Source: Candidatus Woesearchaeota archaeon
GTDB lineage: Archaea > Nanobdellota > Nanobdellia > Woesearchaeales > JACPBO01
DNA length: 64,000 nucleotides
Assembly: GCA_030651135.1 (NCBI GenBank)
Contig: JAUSCS010000006.1
Coordinates: forward strand, 68,851 to 132,850
Direction: 5' to 3'
This document shows positions 2,903-63,993 of the stretch, piece by piece. Both the position numbers and the translations under genes were made by a program. Position 1 is the stretch's first letter. Every line of letters begins with the position of its first letter. The notes under the pieces are model-generated. The model was not told where the DNA came from. It made no database searches and saw only the letters and a program-made list of their open reading frames with translations.

Positions 2903-2928
2903 AATATGAGCTCTTCTACCTAAGTATA

Positions 2929-3243
2929 ATGGAAGAAACAATATTCACAAAAGCAATTGGAAACACGCCTAAAATAAAGGTATTGGAATTTTTGATAGAA
3001 GGCAGAGAATTAGATTACTCCATTTCCGATATTGCAGAAGGTGCTGGCATAGGAAGAACCACCTTATTCAGAATATGGGACGACCTAATAAAATCAAATG
3101 TAATAAAACATACAAGATACATTGGAAATGCCAAGCTCTACAAATTAAACATTGCAAATCCTTTTGTAAAGAAATTAATTGATTTGTTTGACACATTAGT
3201 CATCGCGCCATTGAACAAAAAGAAAATCGAAGTGATGCATTAA
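2929..3243 (+). CDS. Winged-helix DNA-binding protein, paralogue of 57604..57927
   Basis: KVLEFLIEGRELDYSISDIAEGAGIGRTTLF HTH followed by the wing IGNAKLYKLN; ATG at 2929. Confidence 0.8.
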   Translation: MEETIFTKAIGNTPKIKVLEFLIEGRELDYSISDIAEGAGIGRTTLFRIWDDLIKSNVIKHTRYIGNAKLYKLNIANPFVKKLIDLFDTLVIAPLNKKKIEVMH

Positions 3244-49187: not shown

Positions 49188-51449
49188 TTAGCTTTGCTTG
49201 ACGGCCCTCTTCAGCCATTCATTCCAGTCAAAAAATATTCTTTTCGAATCTAAAAATCCGACTTCTTCTTTTACAGCATCAGATATTTTGTGAAATTTGT
49301 CATTTGCCAGAACAACAAACTTTGCTTCGAGCAAATCAGGCGTTTTCGTCTTATCAGCTGCATCAACTATTGCTTCTTTTATTTTAGCCCTTAGCAGTAT
49401 ATTGTCCCATACTGCATCCCAGTTGCCAGCCCATTCCTTGACATTGCCTGCTATTGCTTTCAATATGTCAGAATCTCCATTTACCAGATCCTTGCTCGCT
49501 TCTAAGCTGTCTGTTTTTGAATTGTATTTCATTAAATCGACAAACCCGCCTTCAGTCAAAGGATCATCTTCCCAGAATTTCCTGACTTCAGTTATTTGCG
49601 TAACTCTTCTCCATCTGTGAAGGCCGTCTGCTGATCTTATAGGATTTGCAACAACTATGACATCAGTTGCCTTGAAGCTTGTTCTTGGCACTCCAAGATC
49701 ATTAACAACCCTGTCAAATACGCCATAAGGTGAATCGCCATGTATTGTTCCTGCAACAACATTTGCTAATGCGCCCACTCTCATTGCCTCATATAGTGCT
49801 TTTGCTTCTGTCGAACGAACTTCTCCTACAACCAGCGCAGAATCTCCTAATCTGAGCGTTGATCTTATTCCCTCATCCGCAGAAACTTCTGTTGTTCCTT
49901 TGGTTAAAGCGCTTGCCACTTTCATTGACTGTATGTTATAGCCCAGATTTCTAAGGGCAGAAACCGGGAGTTCTAAGGTGTCCTCAATAGTTATTATCCT
50001 GTATTTTCTCATGATATCAACCATAACAGCCCCCAGCAGTGATGTTTTTCCTGCAGATCTTGTTCCTGCAACAAGCATTGTCCTTGATCCATCTATTATG
50101 AAACTAAGAATTCCTCCTGCAAGCGGATTTATCATTCCATTCTTGATGAACAATGGCAAAGTCCAGGGCTTATCCCTGTGCCTCCTGAATGCATATGCCA
50201 GTCCAGTTGGGTTAAGAGGGGGAGAAATAACACCGACTCTTGCCCTTGCCCCGGGTATTGAAATTTCTGTATCGAGAATCGGATTTGCTTCATCCAATGG
50301 CCTTCCGGAAAGCATCCTTAATTTTGATGCCCATGATTCTGCTTCTGTGCTTGTCGGAATGATGTTTGTCATGCAGTCCCCAAAATCCTGGTGCACAATA
50401 AACATAGGAGTCCTACCCATTGGGCTGTTGATTGTAACATCCTGCACTTTCTCGTCTTTCAGCAAGACTTCAATAAGCCCGAATCCGATTGTATATCTGA
50501 CCAGAATGCTTGCCAATTCGCTGATCTCCCTCTCCCTCATCTTCATATTTTTGTAAGATGCAAGTTCCTCTATCAAATCCCTTCCGACATTGAAGAAAAC
50601 TTCCCTCATTCTTTCAGGGTCTGTGAACTCTGCTTTTGTCGGCTTATGCTCGGCCATTATCTTTCTTGCAGCATCCAGCACATCATACTTTTCCTCGCTT
50701 AGCTTAAATTCGGGCGGAGTCATATGATAAAGGTACTGTACGGTGTCAGGAAACCCGAATATCATGACTTCGGTGCCGTCAATATCGTAATTATCCAGCT
50801 CTTCGCCATTTTCAGGATAAGCTGCCATTAATTTTGTGAACATGAAATCCGGCTTTATTATCGGGTTGAATATCTTTCTGTAAACAGCCCTGTCCCCTCT
50901 TTTGTATCCTGCAAGATAAGGCTGCGCAAGAGCCATCATCTTTGTTTTGCTTAAAAGCCTCAGCACATAATTCAATATTGAGAGGTATTTTTTAGAGCAT
51001 GGAACATACCGCTCGTCAATGGTTTTTTCCAGTATTATTTTTTCATGCCTTATTAACCGCTTGATTTCAATATATGCGTCTATCGGGTCAGATTTAAGCA
51101 TCTTAAAAACAATATTCTGCGTATCAGCATACCATTTATCCGCGTAAGCCCTGCAGTAGGGATCTGATGCAAGATTTTCATAGCCAAAAACATCGCGCTG
51201 CTTTGTCAGATGCTTGTAAAGCCTCGCTATCTCTGCCAGCAGCCTGGTTTGCGCATAATCATACTCATAATCCCTTTTCTGCGAGAATACTATCTTCGTG
51301 ATATTGCCTATCTCAGTTAATACATCTACTGCGCGGGACATGCATGCTGATGAATCTTCCAGTGAAGGGGCAAAATCCCAGTTTTCGGCGTTGAACTTAA
51401 GCACAGTATCCTCGCCTTCCCTTATTACATCATAATCCTCGTCCGGCAT
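49188..51449 (-). CDS. Type II/IV secretion (VirB11/TadA/FlaI-like) ATPase
   Basis: Walker A GTRSAGKTS, TIEDTLEL, VGEVR, GTIHG. Confidence 0.92.
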   Translation of the reverse strand: MPDEDYDVIREGEDTVLKFNAENWDFAPSLEDSSACMSRAVDVLTEIGNITKIVFSQKRDYEYDYAQTRLLAEIARLYKHLTKQRDVFGYENLASDPYCRAYADKWYADTQNIVFKMLKSDPIDAYIEIKRLIRHEKIILEKTIDERYVPCSKKYLSILNYVLRLLSKTKMMALAQPYLAGYKRGDRAVYRKIFNPIIKPDFMFTKLMAAYPENGEELDNYDIDGTEVMIFGFPDTVQYLYHMTPPEFKLSEEKYDVLDAARKIMAEHKPTKAEFTDPERMREVFFNVGRDLIEELASYKNMKMREREISELASILVRYTIGFGLIEVLLKDEKVQDVTINSPMGRTPMFIVHQDFGDCMTNIIPTSTEAESWASKLRMLSGRPLDEANPILDTEISIPGARARVGVISPPLNPTGLAYAFRRHRDKPWTLPLFIKNGMINPLAGGILSFIIDGSRTMLVAGTRSAGKTSLLGAVMVDIMRKYRIITIEDTLELPVSALRNLGYNIQSMKVASALTKGTTEVSADEGIRSTLRLGDSALVVGEVRSTEAKALYEAMRVGALANVVAGTIHGDSPYGVFDRVVNDLGVPRTSFKATDVIVVANPIRSADGLHRWRRVTQITEVRKFWEDDPLTEGGFVDLMKYNSKTDSLEASKDLVNGDSDILKAIAGNVKEWAGNWDAVWDNILLRAKIKEAIVDAADKTKTPDLLEAKFVVLANDKFHKISDAVKEEVGFLDSKRIFFDWNEWLKRAVKQS

Positions 51450-52138: not shown

Positions 52139-53133
52139 TTGAAGTTCTCCATAAACCTTTCAAAATCCTTTTTCTTTATATTCGCTCCGCATGCCATCTC
52201 ATGCCCGCCGCCATAACCGTCAATGCCGACAAGCGCCTTTTCGAGAACATCTCTCACATTTATTTTTGACGCCCTGAAGCTAAGCTTAACTTCTTCTGAT
52301 CTTTCCCGCCCGATAACTATGATCTTCTCAGGATATTTGTGAAGGAAATAATTTGACAGCTCTTTTGTAAAGCTAATTTTGACATCTTTATATATACATA
52401 GGAAAGTCTTGCCTTCAGCTTTTGTTTTTAAAGCCTCTTCCAGCAATTCTTCATACTCTTTGTTTATTTTTTCATACTGATGATAGATGAATTTTCCCTG
52501 CGGCGTGCTCTGATCCAAAATCTCATAAGGCTCATTTATTCTCGTCAATATCTTTATGCATTTGTTGGCATTATCTGTGTCGCCTTTTATGACAAAGGAA
52601 AAGATTTTCATCAGCTCTCCAAGCTTTGTTTCAAACATTATCTTTTCAGGGTCTTTTATATTCTCGGGCAATAAGTCAGGATATTTTTCAGAAAATTCTT
52701 TAGCATATTCAGGATAAAACCAGTCAGCTGCTGCCCCTAATGTAGCAAGCCACAGGTCGCCACCTGCAGCTTTATAACAGATATACGTTACCGGGACATT
52801 CTTACCCTCAAGCCTTGGGTTAAAATAAATGATTTTTTTCTTTTCCAATGGCTCATGGTGATCAATCATAACTATCTTTGTCTTAACAGCATCTATGAAC
52901 TCATCATCAATCATTGCAATATCCAGCACAAAGATCTTGTCTGGCTGATACTCCTCTACTTTTCTTATGAATTTGCTGTCAATCCTGGGCGTGGCTTTGA
53001 CAATAATTCCTTTCCCTTCCTTTATGAACTTGTAAAACAGCAGAAATGAGCATATTCCATCTGCGTCATCATGGAAGAAAAACAGCGGCTTTGTGCAGCT
53101 TTCAAGCTCTTCTTTGATCTTGGCATAATCCAT
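52123..53133 (-). CDS. DHH/DHHA1 phosphoesterase (RecJ/NrnA-like)
   Basis: HDDADG, VLDIA, IDHH, GGGHEMACG. Confidence 0.9.
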   Translation of the reverse strand: MDYAKIKEELESCTKPLFFFHDDADGICSFLLFYKFIKEGKGIIVKATPRIDSKFIRKVEEYQPDKIFVLDIAMIDDEFIDAVKTKIVMIDHHEPLEKKKIIYFNPRLEGKNVPVTYICYKAAGGDLWLATLGAAADWFYPEYAKEFSEKYPDLLPENIKDPEKIMFETKLGELMKIFSFVIKGDTDNANKCIKILTRINEPYEILDQSTPQGKFIYHQYEKINKEYEELLEEALKTKAEGKTFLCIYKDVKISFTKELSNYFLHKYPEKIIVIGRERSEEVKLSFRASKINVRDVLEKALVGIDGYGGGHEMACGANIKKKDFERFMENFNHFLR

Positions 53134-54506: not shown

Positions 54507-55709
54507 ATGGCAACTTTAGCGTTTGAAAATCTTGAATTTCTGGAAAAAGAAAATGAAGTAGTTGTTAATTTCATGAAATACTTCTATTTTAAAATCGAAA
54601 AAGAAGATCTTGAAAAAATAGCTGATTTTAAAATAAATAAGAACAGCATAGATTTCGAGAAAATTTCTGAAAGCTCTGCATCAAATAAGTTCAATATTCT
54701 GCTTTCAAAAAAAATAACAGGATTGAAAAGCAAGATATCTGGCAATAAGACAATCTACATCCACAAAAACTCAGGCATTCCATTGATTGGCTCGAACAGC
54801 TTCGGCCTGGTTGACCGGGGAACATCATTAATAGAAATTAAGCCAATTACTGGCTGCAATCTTGGCTGCATATTCTGCAGCGTAAATGAAGGCATTGGCA
54901 CAAACAAGGCTGTTGATTTTGTCGTCGAAAAAGATTACATTGTTGAGGAATTTAAGAAATTAGTTGCCTTTAAGGGCATCAAAGATATTGAAGCGCATAT
55001 AAATGCGCAGGGCGAGCCGCTGCTTTACTCCAACCTTATAGATCTGATTAAAGATTTGAGAAAAATAAAAGAAGTTGATGTTATTTCAATGGACACAAAC
55101 GGCGTTTTATTAAATAAAAAGCTTGTTGATGAATTAGTGGATGCAGGATTAACCAGATTTAATCTTTCTCTCGTGGCATTAGACAAGGAACTGGCAAAAA
55201 AGCTTGCAGGAACAATCTATGATGTTGAAAAAATAAAAGAAATTGCTCGCTACATAGCCAAAAAATCAGAATTATTGGTTGCTCCTGTTTTGGTGCCGGG
55301 CATGAATGACAGCGAAATACCAAAACTAATAGAATTCTGCAAGGAAATAAATGCAAAAATAGGCCTGCAGAACTTCCTTAATTACAAATATGGAAGAAAC
55401 CCTGTAAAGGCAATTCCGATGGAGCTTTTCAGAAAAAAACTTGGAGAATTGGAATCAGAATATAACATAAAGCTTCTTTTGGCCAAAGATGATTTTAACA
55501 TAAGGGAAACTAAAAAGCTTCCAAAGCCGTTTAAAAAAGGCCAGATAATAAAAGCAAAAATAATGTGCGAAAGCAGATTAAGGCAGGAAAAGATCGCTGT
55601 TGCTGACGAAAGATGCATTACAGCGCCAAACTGCAGCCAGGAGAGCGGCATTGTAAAGCTGAAAATAACAAGGGATAAGGACAATATTTTCTATGGCGGA
55701 CAAGTTTAA
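54507..55709 (+). CDS. Radical SAM protein with C-terminal TRAM-like domain
   Basis: CNLGCIFC (CxxxCxxC), AHINAQGEPLLY, SMDTNG. Confidence 0.9.
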   Translation: MATLAFENLEFLEKENEVVVNFMKYFYFKIEKEDLEKIADFKINKNSIDFEKISESSASNKFNILLSKKITGLKSKISGNKTIYIHKNSGIPLIGSNSFGLVDRGTSLIEIKPITGCNLGCIFCSVNEGIGTNKAVDFVVEKDYIVEEFKKLVAFKGIKDIEAHINAQGEPLLYSNLIDLIKDLRKIKEVDVISMDTNGVLLNKKLVDELVDAGLTRFNLSLVALDKELAKKLAGTIYDVEKIKEIARYIAKKSELLVAPVLVPGMNDSEIPKLIEFCKEINAKIGLQNFLNYKYGRNPVKAIPMELFRKKLGELESEYNIKLLLAKDDFNIRETKKLPKPFKKGQIIKAKIMCESRLRQEKIAVADERCITAPNCSQESGIVKLKITRDKDNIFYGGQV

Positions 55710-55809
55710 CACAACATAGTAGTGAAAACCGAAAGGTTTTTAAATAAAGCCATAAATCTGCTTCTATTGGGATTTTTTCTATTTGGAAAGATTCTAAGGT
55801 TTTTGAAAA

Positions 55810-56637
55810 ATGAAAGAAATAAATGAGAGATGGCTGGCTAATGGATCGATCAATATAGGTGATATTACATCAAAATCCGCTTTGCTGGGCAAAGCCATAG
55901 ATGACATTCTTAAAGAAGATGGCATTGAAAAGCCAACAACACACAGGATTCATAGGGAGATGGCGCGCATTTATAGAGGAAAACTTAATGATGCCATTAA
56001 AGATGATAGCTTCGTCAGAGCAGAAATCATAACGCAGACCATGATCAACTCTTACAATCCTGCAGAAATCATGTTTTGGTATGACAACCCCGATTTCAAA
56101 GATGAAGAAGACGGCGATTATCACCATAACAGTGCTGGGAAAGACAAAATAAAAAAGATAAGAAGCTGCGCTGAAGACCTGCAGGCAAGCTTAGGATCAT
56201 TCGAAGATAAACTCTATGCAAAGCGCCCTTGGGAAACCGAAGGTATATTTAAGAAGATTATGGGGCATATATGCAAAACCGATGTAGAAACGCATGCTAA
56301 GGCTGTAAAAGATGATATTGTCGGAAGCGAGTATAAAGCATTTATTTCATCTATAGAAGACATCACATATGACGTAAGGCGAGCCATAGTAAGGAAAGAG
56401 GGCGGAACTTCAGATTTGAAAACAGCGCTAAATAAAATAGATGATTTACACAAGAAATATAATGAGAGATTTTTAGGGGAGAAATATCACGATGTCTGTA
56501 AAAGAACGAGGGTGGCGGCTGAGAAATTTCTAATAGATGTGGCGCTTTTGAGGACTGTGATCATGAGGTATTTGAATTATAAAGATGGTCAGAACTCTCT
56601 ATACGAGGCGCGAATTAATAAGATGTATATTATGTGA
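55810..56637 (+). CDS. Hypothetical protein
   Basis: 275-aa ORF with an upstream TATA-like TTTAAATA; no family recognised. Confidence 0.62.
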   Translation: MKEINERWLANGSINIGDITSKSALLGKAIDDILKEDGIEKPTTHRIHREMARIYRGKLNDAIKDDSFVRAEIITQTMINSYNPAEIMFWYDNPDFKDEEDGDYHHNSAGKDKIKKIRSCAEDLQASLGSFEDKLYAKRPWETEGIFKKIMGHICKTDVETHAKAVKDDIVGSEYKAFISSIEDITYDVRRAIVRKEGGTSDLKTALNKIDDLHKKYNERFLGEKYHDVCKRTRVAAEKFLIDVALLRTVIMRYLNYKDGQNSLYEARINKMYIM

Positions 56638-56672
56638 TGTAAACGAAATCATAGAACTCTGTATTATTTAAT

Positions 56673-56805
56673 TTAACTAACCTTTAGACCTCTCTCAAGT
56701 TCTCATTAAAAATTAAAAGAAAAAAAGTTATCAAACCTTATTGCGCAGCTGCTACAGTTATGTCTGTCAAGCTTGTGCCGGTTACAGTTACTTCTGCTCC
56801 CTTCA
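56673..56805. repeat. Second copy of the S-layer gene 3' end plus downstream region (partner 57983-58125)
   Basis: 56738-56805 matches 58058-58125 at 67 of 68 nt. TCTCTCAAGTTCTCATTAAAAA is identical in both, and weaker homology extends out to TTAACT. Confidence 0.92.
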
Positions 56806-56851
56806 CTATGCGGTAAGAGCCCCATAATCTCTGAAATAGGCGAAAGGTTTA

Positions 56852-56886
56852 TATGTATGTACACATTTATTATGCGTATATACATA
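56852..56886. promoter_or_regulatory. Candidate autoregulatory operator of the RHH antitoxin-like gene
   Basis: IR TATGTATGTAC...GTATATACATA (10 of 11 match) just downstream of a TATA-like TTTATAT. Confidence 0.5.
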
Positions 56887-56899
56887 TGGAGGAATAAAA

Positions 56900-57133
56900 A
56901 TGGTAACCATGACTTTAGCAGTCCCGGATGAATTAAGGCATAAAATGGAAACGTTTCCAGAAATTAATTGGTCCGAAGTAGCTAGGCAAGCATTTAATCT
57001 GAAAATCAGTGATTTGGAGTTTTTAAGAAAATTTAAATCCGAAAGCAAGTTTACGGAAGAAGGTGCTCTAAAGCTAGGTGCAGAAGTGAGTAGAAACCTC
57101 GCTAAGAGATTCGCCCAAAAAAGAGGCAATTAA
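56900..57133 (+). CDS. RHH/VapB-like antitoxin (orphan)
   Basis: MTLAVPDELRHKMETFPEINWSEVARQAF; GGAGG RBS. Confidence 0.75.
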   Translation: MVTMTLAVPDELRHKMETFPEINWSEVARQAFNLKISDLEFLRKFKSESKFTEEGALKLGAEVSRNLAKRFAQKRGN

Positions 57134-57213
57134 ATGGTTACTAATAAAGGCAGGTATAAATTATATCGTTTGACAGAATAGGATGAAAGGATAGTGAATA
57201 TTATTGCTAAGCC

Positions 57214-57468
57214 CTAATCAATTAACTCTTCAATCTCCCTTATTTTCTTAGGATTCAGGCTGACTTCCAACCCATAATGAGTGGGTTTGGATAAAAGTAT
57301 CTGCTCACTAAGAAGCTCTTCTATTGCCTTTTTAACCTCTCTGGAAACCCTTAATTCATTAGATAACCCTTTTGGAAGGTTATTGATGTTTGTATGCTTA
57401 TGAAGCCACATTCTTTTTCTGTATAATTTCCTAACAATGAACTTTTTTATAACCTGCCTTTCATCCAT
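57214..57468 (-). CDS. Small basic hypothetical protein, paralogue of 2569..2823
   Basis: 84 aa, full-length similarity to the 2.6-kb ORF. Confidence 0.72.
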   Translation of the reverse strand: MDERQVIKKFIVRKLYRKRMWLHKHTNINNLPKGLSNELRVSREVKKAIEELLSEQILLSKPTHYGLEVSLNPKKIREIEELID

Positions 57469-57603
57469 GCAAATCTATGAAAAGGAGCACTCATATTTAT
57501 AGTTTTCGTTTTGTAAACCATGGTTATTAAAATAGAAACATTTATATACTTTTCTCATTTACTTCGCGTTAAGGTGTTCAACTTGAACGAAAAACAAACA
57601 GAA

Positions 57604-57927
57604 ATGGTGGAAGAGAAAAGCGTATTTGTAGAATACTTTGGAGATTACCCTTTGATTAGGGTGTTGGATTTCTTAATTTTAGGCAGGGACATGGATTACA
57701 GTATGACGGATATATGCGACAATTCATGTGTCGGTTGGACAGCCTTTTCCGATATATGGCCGCGTTTGGTTGAAAAAGAGATAGTAATCTTCACGAGAAA
57801 AATAGGAAATGCAAAATTGTTCAGATTGAATGTAAAAAATCCCTGGGTAAAAGAACTTATAAGGATGGACCACGTTATTACAAAATTGGAAACGGAAAAA
57901 TTTATTTCTACAGAAGTTACAGTTTAG
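57604..57927 (+). CDS. Winged-helix protein, paralogue of 2929..3243
   Basis: IRVLDFLILGRDMDYSMTDI...IGNAKLFRLN; ATG at 57604. Confidence 0.8.
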   Translation: MVEEKSVFVEYFGDYPLIRVLDFLILGRDMDYSMTDICDNSCVGWTAFSDIWPRLVEKEIVIFTRKIGNAKLFRLNVKNPWVKELIRMDHVITKLETEKFISTEVTV

Positions 57928-58057
57928 CCATATAACAAATTTTGTTTAATAATCGCAGTGCGCACCACCAAAAGCATTTCAGTTAACTGATCTTTAGTCT
58001 TCTCTCAAGTTCTCATTAAAAATAAAAGAAAAAAAAGAAAAAAAGGTAAAAACCTTT

Positions 58058-60463
58058 TTATTGCGCAGCTGCTACAGTTATGTCTGTCAAGCTCGTGCCG
58101 GTTACAGTTACTTCTGCTCCCTTCATGCTTGAAGCATACTTGCTCCACTGCGAAGCTACTCTGCTGGCTCTTCTTGTGTCTTCAGCATTGTATCCAGCAA
58201 CTAGCATTGCAACTTTGCCTGCATTTTCATACAGCTTTACCATTGCTTTGCCTTCTGTGAAATCTTTGCCGCATGGGCTTGGACTTCCCATTATTGCTGC
58301 TGCTGCTGTGTTAGCACATGGTCCGCCTATAATGATGGCGTTCTGAGCTTTTATGTCAGCAACTTCGCTGTCTAGCTTGGCAGTTCCAACATTCCAAACA
58401 TTGACTGTTTGTGTTGTAGTTCCGCCGCTTGTGGTTGTTGTTGCTGCAGTTGGTGCAACGAATACAGTATATGCTGTTGCTGCGGAAGGATATAACAACT
58501 CCAAAATATCAGTGTCTGTGTTGTACTTCACATATGTACCATATTGGGACATACCCCTCTGGTCATATGTGCTTCCAATTGTGCCCATCGCTAAACCATC
58601 TCCAGTAGGCGTAGCAACCTGCATATCATACTTGCTGTCTGCAATTTGGTTCAACGTAATGTTGATGTCGTTACCAGCATCACCTAATTTCTGGTTAGAA
58701 GTGCCAGCTGCAGTCAAGTTGTAGTAGTCTCCATCATTGTACTGTGTCTCTTGCGTAATGGTAATGTTGCAACTAACAACACCACTTACCCCTGTCAAGT
58801 TAGCTGGGAACGCTATCTTTTCCCCGCCTTTAGCATAAACGTAGTTCTGCAAAGCTTTTCCACCAGAAGATGTTGTGACGTTTATACCACTATTTGTGGC
58901 ATTTACCATAACATTGTAGGTATACCCATCTAAGCTGAATGTTGACGAGTTTGTCGAATCCAAGCTTAATGTCAGGGTGTCACTGCCAGATGCTATGTCT
59001 TTTATCTTCACTTCAGGCGAACTTGAACCTGCATTTATCCTTTTTACTTGCATAATGTGCGAATAACCGCCTTGGTCGATTATGAAGTAATCGTTTTCTA
59101 CCATTGCAATTTGTCCACTAGCAAAAGATAAATTTGTCCACAATTTATAGCTGTCTACTCCAAGATCACAGTTCGCAGTTCCACTGGTTGCTGTTCCTTT
59201 TAAGAACTTAGTGGAGTATTTTTGGCCTGCTTTGTTTGTGAACTCTATCGCTGCAGTATCTTCGCCAGTTGGATAGATCTTTATCACATCTCTGCTTGCG
59301 TCATCAAGTGCGGGTGTTGTCCCAGTAAAAGACCACTTGAATGTGCCGAATACAGGGTCTGTAAACGATTCACCGCTTTTCAGATATCTGAATTCTGGGT
59401 CCATATTGTATGGCTCTACTGCTATTGCAAGCTTCGTTATCGTAGAACCACTAACGCTTGCCACCACCGTTGTTCCATCTATGTCTGAAGATGCCATTCT
59501 TGCAGCTTCTCCATTTCTCAGTATTAACTTGTCTGAGCCGATGAACAATCTTACAGCGCCGCTTGTTACTGGTGTTGTATAAGCAAATATGTCTCTTACA
59601 TACACTCTTATTCCGCCTAATACAACTACTTCGCCAGCTGTTACTGAAGCAGATTCTCCATTAACTTTGATTGTTGCAGTTGAAGTTGTTGTTCCTGTGT
59701 TTACACCTGTTACTTCAACCGAAACATCTGTTCCTGCAACTGTTACAGTTATAGCTTCTCCTGCAGAGAATGTTTGGTCTGTTCCGCCGCCGAATAATAC
59801 AAGCCCAGTTGTGCTGTTTACAACTAATTCAGCATCAGTTCCTGCAAATGTATATTCTTTGCCGAATAATGTTATCAGCTTGTTGTTTAGCTTTGTTGTT
59901 GTAACTGCTGAAGGAAACTCTATTTGCGCGACATACTTTGCCCCGCTTGGCAAATTAAGATACACTTGAGGATCGTTTGATAATCCTGTTGGTGTTCCAA
60001 ATGTAATTTTCGCTGTCGAGTTAAGTATGTTTATCTTTTGGTTATAGTCCCAAGCTGTGCCATCTTCATCTGTAATAGATCCGCTAGCCAATACCTTTGT
60101 CAAATCAGATGATGTCAGTGCTGTTTTAACAACACTTAATGTCTGGCCCAGATATAGCTTCTGTCCTGCTGTCTCGACTTTTACACCGCCTTCCAAAACT
60201 GTTGTTGTTGCTCCTGATGTTGTTGTTGTAATAGATGCTGCTTGCAATGCTGTTGCAACGTCAATAGCACCTATTATGTCTTCTGAAGACGCAGCTTTGC
60301 CAACTACAAGTAAGGCATTAAACTTTCCATCAGTCCCAATAAATAATGGGCTCGGGTACTGACTCAAGTCAGCTGCTGCTACTGCACCTAGGATTGTAGC
60401 GCCTAACATTGCTGCGCCGGTTCCTATTGCAGCGATCCTCTTTATTGCTTTTTTTACGTTCAT
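58058..60463 (-). CDS. S-layer protein (Methanococcus-type N/C domains)
   Basis: Signal KKAIKRIAAIGTGAAMLGAT, VVGKAASSEDIIGAIDVA, IIIGGPCANTAA, MLVAGYNAEDTRRA; Thr/Ser/Gly-rich; GGAGGTG RBS. Confidence 0.9.
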   Translation of the reverse strand: MNVKKAIKRIAAIGTGAAMLGATILGAVAAADLSQYPSPLFIGTDGKFNALLVVGKAASSEDIIGAIDVATALQAASITTTTSGATTTVLEGGVKVETAGQKLYLGQTLSVVKTALTSSDLTKVLASGSITDEDGTAWDYNQKINILNSTAKITFGTPTGLSNDPQVYLNLPSGAKYVAQIEFPSAVTTTKLNNKLITLFGKEYTFAGTDAELVVNSTTGLVLFGGGTDQTFSAGEAITVTVAGTDVSVEVTGVNTGTTTSTATIKVNGESASVTAGEVVVLGGIRVYVRDIFAYTTPVTSGAVRLFIGSDKLILRNGEAARMASSDIDGTTVVASVSGSTITKLAIAVEPYNMDPEFRYLKSGESFTDPVFGTFKWSFTGTTPALDDASRDVIKIYPTGEDTAAIEFTNKAGQKYSTKFLKGTATSGTANCDLGVDSYKLWTNLSFASGQIAMVENDYFIIDQGGYSHIMQVKRINAGSSSPEVKIKDIASGSDTLTLSLDSTNSSTFSLDGYTYNVMVNATNSGINVTTSSGGKALQNYVYAKGGEKIAFPANLTGVSGVVSCNITITQETQYNDGDYYNLTAAGTSNQKLGDAGNDINITLNQIADSKYDMQVATPTGDGLAMGTIGSTYDQRGMSQYGTYVKYNTDTDILELLYPSAATAYTVFVAPTAATTTTSGGTTTQTVNVWNVGTAKLDSEVADIKAQNAIIIGGPCANTAAAAIMGSPSPCGKDFTEGKAMVKLYENAGKVAMLVAGYNAEDTRRASRVASQWSKYASSMKGAEVTVTGTSLTDITVAAAQ

Positions 60464-60610
60464 GCTTAAACACCTCCGTGTTTTACTTAGCATTATTCCA
60501 AAAAGGGAACATCGTTCTCTTTTTTCACAAACTTAGATGGCTGTAGGAAGCTTGCTCTTCTGCAAACTATTCCTATTTCTAAGTTCTTATCATCTACAGT
60601 AAGGAACTAG

Positions 60611-61750: not shown

Positions 61751-62764
61751 TTAAATCCAAGAAAACAGCTTTGCAAGCCACTTAAGGAATGCTCTTTTCC
61801 TTGCTGCCCAAAGCAGCATATTTATTTCCAGATCAAAGATGCCGGGTATTCTTTTGCCGGTTTCCAAAAGTTCCATCAGGGTTTCCTGCCTTTTCTTCAT
61901 TTTTAAGATTTCTTCAATCCCCTTTGGCCCATAGTTTTTATCTAAAATAAGCTTTGCAGCATCTTCTGCGCTTTTCAATGCAAAATAAATCCCCTGCCCT
62001 GTAAAGCCAGAGGCAAAGCCGGCAGCATCTCCTACCAGGAATTTGTTCCCAAACCTGTATCCTTGGTAGTCGAAGTTTATAATAGCTCCTTTCAGCTTTG
62101 AGTTGTCTGCTTTAACATTGATTTTTCTGCAGAAATCATAAAAATGCTCCTTTAGGTTTTTTGGGCTGGTTGAGCCGGATCCTATTGATGTATAGCCTTT
62201 GTGTGGGAATATCCAATGGTAGCCAAGCCCATTTTCAAAATTTGTATACGCCACTAGCTCATTAAATTTCTTTTTTGTTGAATATTCTAATGTAAAATGA
62301 AGCCTTTTTGTTTTTAGGCCAAGATGTCTTCTGACAATTGAATTAGAGCCGTCTGCGCCAATAAGATATCTGTAAAAATATTTTTTATTGCCAGCTGTCA
62401 CGAAATTATCAGCCACTTTGGAAACTTGTGAATTTTTCAATATCTTTGCGCCATTTTTTAAGGCGCTTTCCGCAATAATCCTGCATAATTTCTTTTTGTC
62501 TACTGTTATGATGAGTGGTTTTTTTGTTCCTTTGAACTCATATTTTTTATTTTTATGATTCAAGTATATTTTCCTGAAGTTTCTCTCAATTATGCGTTCT
62601 GGGATCAGCCTTAAATCATATCTTAAAACTCCTGCTGCGCATGGCTTAAGGCAGAAATCGCTGTCTTTTTCCAGAACAATGACTTTCTTTTTTCCTTTTG
62701 CAAGAACTTCCGCAGCTTTCAGGCCAGCCAAGCCAGCTCCAACAATGACAGCATCGTATTTCAT
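61751..62764 (-). CDS. FAD-dependent oxidoreductase, geranylgeranyl reductase family
   Basis: IVGAGLAG, KPCAAG, GADG, YHWIFP, LVGDAAG. Confidence 0.88.
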   Translation of the reverse strand: MKYDAVIVGAGLAGLKAAEVLAKGKKKVIVLEKDSDFCLKPCAAGVLRYDLRLIPERIIERNFRKIYLNHKNKKYEFKGTKKPLIITVDKKKLCRIIAESALKNGAKILKNSQVSKVADNFVTAGNKKYFYRYLIGADGSNSIVRRHLGLKTKRLHFTLEYSTKKKFNELVAYTNFENGLGYHWIFPHKGYTSIGSGSTSPKNLKEHFYDFCRKINVKADNSKLKGAIINFDYQGYRFGNKFLVGDAAGFASGFTGQGIYFALKSAEDAAKLILDKNYGPKGIEEILKMKKRQETLMELLETGKRIPGIFDLEINMLLWAARKRAFLKWLAKLFSWI

Positions 62765-63993
62765 CTTATCTTCTTAACAATTCCCTTTTCCATATCAATC
62801 TCAACAATATCCCCGCTCTTCAGGATATCTGTTGCAATTTTTGTCCCGATTATGCAGGGAATTTTTAATTCTCTGCTTATAATTGCAGCATGTGTTGTTA
62901 TGCCGCCTTCATTTGTTATGATTGCCTTTGCCTTTTTCATCAAAGGAACAAATTCAGGCCTTGTCATCCCTGTTACAAGAATCTCCCCGTTGTTGAATGT
63001 GTCTTTGACAGGGTCAAAAACAACCCTTGCCTTGCCTTCTATAAGCTTTTCCCCATTGCCTATTGAAGCAATAAAGCCCTTTATAATGCCTTTTTTTGCT
63101 ATTTCCTCTCTTTGTTTCTTGAAGAAATCCCGAACATCTAAAGCATCCTTGCCGTATAGCATGATAGTTTTTATTTCTTCCCCTTCCAGATATGAAAAGC
63201 AAGCAATATGCTCCCGCTTGCTAATCTCGTCCTTGCTGACTAATCTGCCGCTTTCCAATATTGCCATTACTTCATCAAATAAGTAATTATATGATTCAGA
63301 TTTTTCAACATTAAACCTCTTTTCAATTTCATCAAATATCTTGTCAACTGAGAACACCAATCTTTGTATACTTTCTTTTCTGTCATCTTGGAATGTTGAA
63401 AAAAACCTGACCAAGTCAAAAAATAGCTTGGCATCCGGGTCTGGTCGGTAATTTTTATACACTGCATTTATTTCTTTTTTGGCAGTCTTGTGCTTATTCT
63501 CAAATTTGTTTATCTCATTTTTAATTGTTTCAAGGTTTTTTGCTTTAATCAGATCCGATATTAAATTTAAAAAATAACTTTCACTCAAATAAAATGCCTT
63601 AAGAAAGCTATTCTGAATCCAAAAATAATTTTTTGCATGCTCCTGGAGTTTTTTAAAGAAATGGGGAAATTTTTTAATTTCTTCAATGGAATTGCTTATA
63701 ACTGCTTTCTTTAAATTTTCATTTATGAAAACAGCCTTGGCAAACTCCAAAAGAGCTATTTTTTCCTTTTCCAGAAAGCTTAATTTTTCAGGAGTGCTTA
63801 ATATTCTGATCACTTCAGGCGCATCCTCTTTTTTTACTGCAGGCAATAGCTTTAAATAATCCTGCTCTTCCAGCAGGTCCATTCCTTCCATAATCAAGGA
63901 ATAGCCGTATTGCCTTTTCATCAAAGAAAAAATCCTGGAAAACAGGTTTTTTAGCTGTGTATTTGTAAAATTTTGTATGCTCTTGTCTCTCAT
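62761..63993 (-). CDS. Phospho-His swivel domain protein, paralogue 3 (5' end may lie beyond the window)
   Basis: C-terminal TGMTRPEFVPLMKKAKAIITNEGGITTHAAIISRELKIPCIIG; reading frame is open to the window edge. Confidence 0.85.
   Translation of the reverse strand: MRDKSIQNFTNTQLKNLFSRIFSLMKRQYGYSLIMEGMDLLEEQDYLKLLPAVKKEDAPEVIRILSTPEKLSFLEKEKIALLEFAKAVFINENLKKAVISNSIEEIKKFPHFFKKLQEHAKNYFWIQNSFLKAFYLSESYFLNLISDLIKAKNLETIKNEINKFENKHKTAKKEINAVYKNYRPDPDAKLFFDLVRFFSTFQDDRKESIQRLVFSVDKIFDEIEKRFNVEKSESYNYLFDEVMAILESGRLVSKDEISKREHIACFSYLEGEEIKTIMLYGKDALDVRDFFKKQREEIAKKGIIKGFIASIGNGEKLIEGKARVVFDPVKDTFNNGEILVTGMTRPEFVPLMKKAKAIITNEGGITTHAAIISRELKIPCIIGTKIATDILKSGDIVEIDMEKGIVKKIR

Follow-up and report, generated by a model that had tools for sequence, protein, structure and literature searches.

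The 3′ end of the surface-layer (S-layer) protein gene of a Candidatus Woesearchaeota archaeon is present twice in a 64,000-nucleotide (nt) stretch of contig JAUSCS010000006.1 (positions 68,851 to 132,850; hereafter the window, numbered from its first letter). Between the two copies lies a pair of divergent genes, which code for an 84-residue protein, p84, and a 107-residue winged helix-turn-helix (wHTH) protein. This p84-wHTH module is mobile across the Woesearchaeales. We consider it probable that the ~140-bp repeat is a target duplication, generated by insertion of the 0.7-kb cassette, which lacks a recombinase, within the final 22 codons of the S-layer gene. The repeat is thus most likely the footprint of an insertion, and neither an attachment site specific to S-layer genes nor the relic of a second S-layer gene. 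Mobile DNA of DPANN archaea, whose genomes are small and gene-dense, is little known, and the case shows a very small gene cassette spreading across the Woesearchaeales. Insertion into an essential gene would have been tolerated because the long duplication rebuilds both the gene end and its terminator.

A duplicated S-layer gene end and the genes it encloses

The segment comprises the following features. Genomes, contigs and loci used for comparison are designated by G, C and L numbers; G001 belongs to the same genus as the genome under study.

56666-56805, minus strand: copy A, an orphan duplicate of the S-layer gene 3′ end, with a terminator-like part (56666-56737), a coding-like part (56738-56805) and no upstream reading frame
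56813-57137, plus strand: vapB-like ribbon-helix-helix (RHH) remnant with its own promoter; gene at 56900-57133, 77 aa; the partner PIN toxin gene is missing, its ATG being left at 57134-57136
57137-57213, no strand: 77-nt spacer, common to G001 and not to modules elsewhere
57214-57468, minus strand: gene for p84, the 84-aa predicted winged-helix protein of the mobile module
57469-57603, no strand: control region between the divergent module genes; it contains a palindrome and is covered by the DNA homology to other modules
57604-57927, plus strand: second module gene, for a 107-aa MarR/ArsR-like wHTH protein with a long C-terminal helix in its predicted structure
57928-57975, no strand: 48-nt spacer between the module and copy B
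57976-58125, minus strand: copy B, the functional end of the S-layer gene, with its 3′ end (58058-58125) and terminator region (57976-58057)
58058-60493, minus strand: S-layer protein gene, 811 aa, kept intact by copy B (Pfam S_layer_C, TIGR01564)

Alignment of the two copies bore out the duplication, which an initial annotation of the window had noticed. Their coding parts, which hold the S-layer gene's stop codon, the 21 complete codons before it and 2 nt of a 22nd, are identical at 67 of 68 positions, and the sole difference (T at 56774, C at 58094) is synonymous, giving ACA or ACG for Thr. The untranslated parts, which extend 72 to 82 nt past the stop codon, share ~85% identity and differ by a 10-nt indel. 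A flank-to-flank alignment gave z = 23 against shuffled sequences, with a left flank that held just the last 39 nt of copy A. No third full copy of the repeat was found in the 1.4-Mb genome, and an exact 23-mer from the S-layer 3′ end had no match in the genome_contigs and metagenome_contigs collections.

A collapsed or mis-threaded repeat might be suspected in a metagenome-derived genome, as repeats break de Bruijn graphs, and the annotation had named such an artefact as one reason for which its proposal could fail. However, the copies differ by one substitution and by indels, and they form four distinct junctions. A Logan unitig of 1312 nt from run SRR13727527 matches 56776-58087 at 100% and ends where the copies share 31-mers, so that the inner junctions of both copies are backed by an independent assembly. 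The same structure is found in G001. An assembly artefact is therefore extremely improbable. Repeats of this kind do break assemblies, and they place recombination-prone sequences beside a fast-evolving S-layer gene.

The annotation had also considered that the repeat could be what remains of a tandem S-layer paralogue. The body of such a paralogue would have been lost, with accessory genes taking its place. In G011, G017 and G026, additional genes or gene fragments that code for an S-layer C-terminal domain do lie beside the S-layer gene. In the window, however, the similarity stops abruptly after 68 nt; upstream of copy A there are stop codons and nothing that resembles an S-layer gene, and tblastn recovered residues 783-811 only. 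Copy A is moreover near-identical to copy B, which is not what a paralogue would look like, and the same architecture recurs beside TrmB-type, AbrB-like, ATPase and other genes that have nothing to do with the S-layer. We consider this explanation very improbable.

The genes described between the copies, namely an RHH antitoxin-like gene and the divergent wHTH module, were confirmed, as was the lack of a recombinase gene in the segment between the repeats. An integrase was also sought among the 10 largest open reading frames (ORFs) scanned of the 52-64 kb region and in G001, and none was found. The 1.3-kb cassette of the annotation is indeed inserted DNA, but it does not represent a single unit, being a composite of the 0.7-kb mobile module and an orphan vapB-like remnant. 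The RHH protein scored 27 bits against the NCBIfam VapB model, under the cut-off of 60, and its precomputed Pfam assignment is RHH_12. The RHH cassette (56813-57137) shares 81% DNA identity with a segment of G024, a genome of another family, in which a PIN-like ORF (MELVVDANILFAALIK) comes next, as in type II VapBC systems. The homology ends at the start codon of that ORF, indicating that the RHH gene is an orphan vapB-like remnant; unlike in type II VapBC, there is no PIN ORF, and hence no toxin gene, at this place in the window. No flanking repeats were detected around the RHH cassette and its homologues.

Comparison with relatives involved two further genes on the other side of copy A.

54507-55709, plus strand: radical-SAM gene; synteny in other families makes it the S-layer gene's ancestral convergent neighbour
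55810-56637, plus strand: 275-aa gene in a variable slot, occupied in G001 by an unrelated gene for 241 aa, the C-terminal part of which is HPr-like

In four other families, only ~100-130 nt separate the radical-SAM gene from the S-layer gene, its convergent neighbour; in this genus the distance is 1.9-2.3 kb. Synteny, which the annotation had suggested as a check, thus speaks for inserted DNA. In G001 the order is radical-SAM gene, variable gene, decayed copy A, p84, wHTH gene, copy B and S-layer gene, and the presence of the same repeat-flanked arrangement there indicates that the insertion predates the split of the two species. The RHH gene is absent from G001. In a four-way alignment, copy A of the window keeps 13 more S-layer-like bases than that of G001, which suggests that G001 underwent a deletion between GTTACT microrepeats. 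At a CTCAT[T/C] site, copies A and B agree with each other in either species, and this, along with the 67/68 identity of the coding parts, points to gene conversion between the copies. Along 46 kb, G001 has five further clean insertions when compared with this genome, and none of them has a flanking repeat abutting its junctions, arguing that the repeat is tied to the module and not to the lineage. On this small sample, we rejected the idea that indels in this lineage are generally flanked by repeats.

Spread of the module and repeats at its other sites

DNA homology to 84 other loci begins at 57202-57231 and ends at 57851-57927, and hence covers exactly the two ORFs. Both genes were present at 125 of the 138 loci that were fetched from metagenomes and genomes; at most of the 13 loci with p84 but no partner, p84 lies within ~400 nt of the locus end, where a partner would be invisible. 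The strict module was found in 17 of 401 Woesearchaeales genomes (~4%), belonging to 14 families and patchily distributed within them, with two copies in one genome. p84 is 77-99% identical between genomes whose core protein Nre is 49-69% identical, and at four loci modules with 91-94% DNA identity are embedded in flanks without detectable similarity. Empty sites, in which the flanks are joined without the module, were identified for two of these four loci in genomes related to those of L078 and L084, including for L078 a genome that carries its own module copy elsewhere, and also in relatives of L168. An exact look-up of neighbour proteins for population-level empty sites returned occupied contigs only. 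Our literature search turned up no account of this module, nor any of such duplications in DPANN archaea.

At the site where L084 has the module, L229 (G448:C47:16440-17657) carries a 1.2-kb insert without it. This site may be an insertion hot spot.

We searched the module sites for direct repeats common to the 200 nt before and the 200 nt after the module, with a threshold of z >= 5 against shuffles. Locus-specific direct repeats were detected at 13 of 75 distinct sites and in none of 176 shifted control intervals (Fisher p = 7e-8). They differ in sequence at every site and measure 17-76 nt, with an additional repeat of ~130 nt in G102; perfect or near-perfect examples match at 36/36, 29/29 and 29/30 positions. 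The clearest ones begin 0-26 nt from the two stop codons of the module. In most of them a neighbouring gene's 3′ end is included (TrmB-type and AbrB-like genes and one of 678 aa are among these), and some contain a promoter and 5′ end instead. The proposal that the S-layer 3′ end is a dedicated integration site does not hold, as the same module occupies many sites that are unrelated to one another, and the flanking repeats are particular to the site.

At L168, the 29-nt segment that is repeated around the module is single-copy in three relatives, showing that the duplication came with the insertion. The insertion at this locus (2600-2640; the same site as L251) put 8 codons and the promoter of a gene for a DUF87/HerA-like ATPase beyond the module. 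The ATPase gene now begins 5 nt past the stop codon of p84, and its transcripts probably originate in the module.

Integrative elements often target the 3′ ends of tRNA or protein genes and carry a replacement end. The window resembles such cases in that a direct repeat containing a gene 3′ end brackets the insert and the gene remains intact. The repeat might accordingly be the attachment-site duplication of a larger plasmid or provirus that carried an integrase, targeted the S-layer 3′ end and decayed to 1.3 kb, and the wHTH proteins of the module do resemble small regulators of archaeal viruses and plasmids. We hold this to be improbable. Unlike known integrative elements, the module has no integrase, here or in G001, and no attP/attB pair, as the repeat differs in sequence at every locus and in some cases consists of a 5′ end or promoter; the module was not found on IMG/VR viral contigs. 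Furthermore, repeats lie within 0-26 nt of the same two ORFs at a dozen other loci, which independent decay of larger elements would not yield.

A subgroup of the loci has ends of the insertion sequence (IS) type. The homologous DNA of L076, L078, L083 and L084 reaches ~20-50 nt past the ORFs and ends in imperfect inverted repeats of 15-17 nt (GGYTATGTGTAAAAA; degenerate in L076). Comparison with empty sites revealed a 9-bp target duplication for L078 (ATTCAGAAA / ATTCAAAAA) and one of ~7-9 bp for L084. The inverted-end motif occurs in 3 of 87 loci and not in the window; we rejected inverted ends as a trait of the module in general, since none were found in the window copy or in the other subgroups. 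The same terminal motif is also present at three contig ends of G443, where it terminates a multi-copy element, and in G452 it follows a DDE_Tnp_1-like ORF, a weak match (E = 0.002) that falls below the cut-off and in which a YREK motif was read by eye. The inverted-end subgroup appears to be a cargo-carrying non-autonomous element, and it is probably moved by an IS4/IS5-like transposase. Across the module loci there is no fixed short target duplication, the lengths being ~140 nt in the window, 17-76 nt elsewhere and 9 bp in the inverted-end subgroup only.

The multi-copy IS-like element itself ends in TAG-TTTTTACACATAGCA (L235, L248 and L249, which are the G443 contig ends, and L239 541-1236). 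One of its copies adjoins a degenerate ORF with a weak DDE_Tnp_1 match, in which YREK was read by eye. The element breaks the G443 assembly at three or more places.

MIC231 of Bacillus cereus is a mobile insertion cassette (MIC) that is mobilised in trans by the IS231 transposase. The p84-wHTH module is similar to such cassettes, and to MITEs (miniature inverted-repeat transposable elements) with cargo, in being small, devoid of a transposase and loaded with passenger genes, and its inverted-end subgroup also shares with them the inverted ends, the 9-bp duplication and clean empty sites. Outside this subgroup, unlike in MICs and MITEs, the flanking duplications are variable (17-140 nt) and no end sequences are conserved.

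Origin of the repeat

The features of the locus can be accounted for as follows. The cassette, made up of the divergent genes for p84 and the 107-aa wHTH protein, would have entered the S-layer gene at its end, in the common ancestor of the genus. The resulting duplication would span the gene end and the terminator, such that copy B keeps the S-layer gene complete and copy A is a leftover. A vapBC-type module would later have landed between copy A and the cassette and then lost its toxin gene, and the rest of it was probably removed from G001 by the deletion between microrepeats mentioned above. Occasional gene conversion may keep parts of the two copies alike. As for the insertion, we infer that the duplication arises in situ from breaks placed widely and variably on the two strands, i.e., by uncoupled end joining, followed by fill-in, and that the enzyme acts in trans. 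In compact genomes, only those insertions whose duplication restores the end of the gene that was hit would survive.

Duplications of unusual or variable length are not without precedent. Casposons, which use a Cas1-family enzyme, generate duplications of 14-15 bp, duplication of the CRISPR repeat covers 24-47 bp, and in insertion of the long interspersed nuclear element (LINE) type, uncoupled second-strand cleavage leads to variable duplications. The module resembles these systems in having unusually long or variable target duplications, as produced by widely or loosely spaced strand breaks. It differs from them in that no Cas1, polymerase or reverse transcriptase is linked to it and in that the lengths span 9-140 bp.

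Several points weigh against an insertion with target duplication. No repeat was detectable at 62 of the 75 module sites, and we know of no enzyme or mechanism that gives target duplications of 9 to 140 bp. In the window, the repeat is not tight on the module, being separated from it by 48 nt at one end and, at the other, by 77 nt together with the vapB remnant; it is possible that these spacers reflect a composite insert or a different event. There is no empty site within the genus. The difference between the coding part (99% identity) and the untranslated part (85%) calls for either gene conversion or an arm derived from a donor. Finally, the module could be a strongly constrained gene pair relocated by unrelated processes.

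A donor-derived arm acquired by homologous recombination is a fair rival to target duplication, even if an unlikely one. In this scenario, of the Campbell type or facilitated by homology, a circular or linear cassette already linked to the S-layer 3′ end and terminator of another Woesearchaeon would have integrated, leaving one of the two copies as donor DNA. A coding part with 67/68 identity next to an untranslated part with ~85% identity and indels is what would be expected if a diverged arm recombined within the conserved coding stretch, and the additional 48- and 77-nt spacers between repeat and module are also in keeping with it. The scenario nevertheless requires an earlier insertion beside an S-layer gene elsewhere, and none of the ~90 other module loci adjoins one. 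At L168, both copies lie in native sequence and the segment is single-copy in relatives, making an in-place duplication the simplest explanation, although re-integration of a circle with an identical arm could account for that locus as well. Moreover, repeats that are 71-85% identical, with scattered mismatches, would not support homologous recombination.

Returning to target duplication, we tentatively suggest a more general possibility, which we consider somewhat doubtful at present. The p84-wHTH pair might represent an undescribed family of minimal DPANN mobile elements, ~0.7 kb in length, with two DNA-binding proteins, no recombinase and usually no defined ends. Such elements would duplicate 9 to ~140 bp of their target, often inside gene ends and thereby sparing essential genes such as that for the S-layer, through a new trans-acting or host-dependent mode of insertion with uncoupled end joining, possibly guided by both winged-helix proteins. 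If the long, variable duplications do result from a distinct mechanism, it would be an undescribed one and could become a handle for genetic tools in uncultured archaea.

Module proteins and neighbouring genes

Structure prediction gives winged-helix folds for both module proteins and a catalytic domain for neither. The AlphaFold model of p84 (pLDDT, predicted local distance difference test, 75) has Foldseek matches to SSV1 F-93, STIV F93, RTP and MarR-type proteins, and the model of the 107-aa protein (pLDDT 90) resembles MarR/ArsR regulators. At the sequence level, Pfam, NCBIfam and PHROGs searches gave nothing meaningful for these two proteins or for the 275-aa protein of the variable slot, and PDB sequence profiles, run for the two module proteins, gave nothing. 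PADLOC returned one weak match for the wHTH protein (E = 0.0011). The p84 family consists of 341 sequence clusters, with no Pfam assignment; its informative names are all "hypothetical protein", except for two JGI labels that read "cell division protein FtsL". We placed the start of the wHTH gene at 57604, where the conserved MVEEKSVF begins (107 aa); the longest ORF begins at 57520. Between the divergent module genes, the imperfect palindrome at 57502-57539 (GTTTTCGTTTTGTAAACCATGGTTATTAAAATAGAAAC) is likely an operator.

A large family of paralogues, ~40% identical, includes the 107-aa wHTH protein; the family is present in 115 of 301 Woesearchaeales genomes with up to nine or more matches per genome. 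Paralogues are encoded in the genome under study at C12:16608-16871 and C7:71773-72042 (2923-3192 of the window), and at 11384-11689 of L016. One paralogue lies upstream of the S-layer gene in G001.

Membership of the S-layer protein in its family was well supported by PF05124 (S_layer_C; 46 bits, cut-off 23.9), and its score against TIGR01564 was 25 bits, with a cut-off of 25. Of 31 relatives, 29 have homologues. When the two species of the genus are compared, protein identity is 80% over the first 150 residues and 54-60% in the central part (58498-59528; 8902-9941 of L016), which can barely be aligned; in the final 68 nt of the gene, a single synonymous base sets the species apart. The genes that flank the S-layer gene share ~88% DNA identity between these species. 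In G001 the S-layer gene was read as two pieces, corresponding to residues 4-154 and 173-811.

The slot after the radical-SAM gene (55794-56685 of the window; 6680-7449 of L016) holds unrelated genes in the two species, with the same upstream region and first two codons; a search for a flanking repeat around it found none. Elsewhere, G001 has extra inserts of ~1.5 kb at window position 49981 and 0.83 kb at 52143, and along the 46 kb the two species differ by several further indels of 0.3-3 kb, each of one gene. A further similarity between gene ends was observed at the edge of the window: two tandem paralogous genes resemble each other over ~250 nt at their 3′ ends (64297-64544 in window numbering and C7:134635-134882 of the genome, outside the window). 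A 410-aa gene with a PEP-utilizer domain (62761-63993) lies just upstream of these paralogues, and G001 has a larger version of the tandem arrangement.

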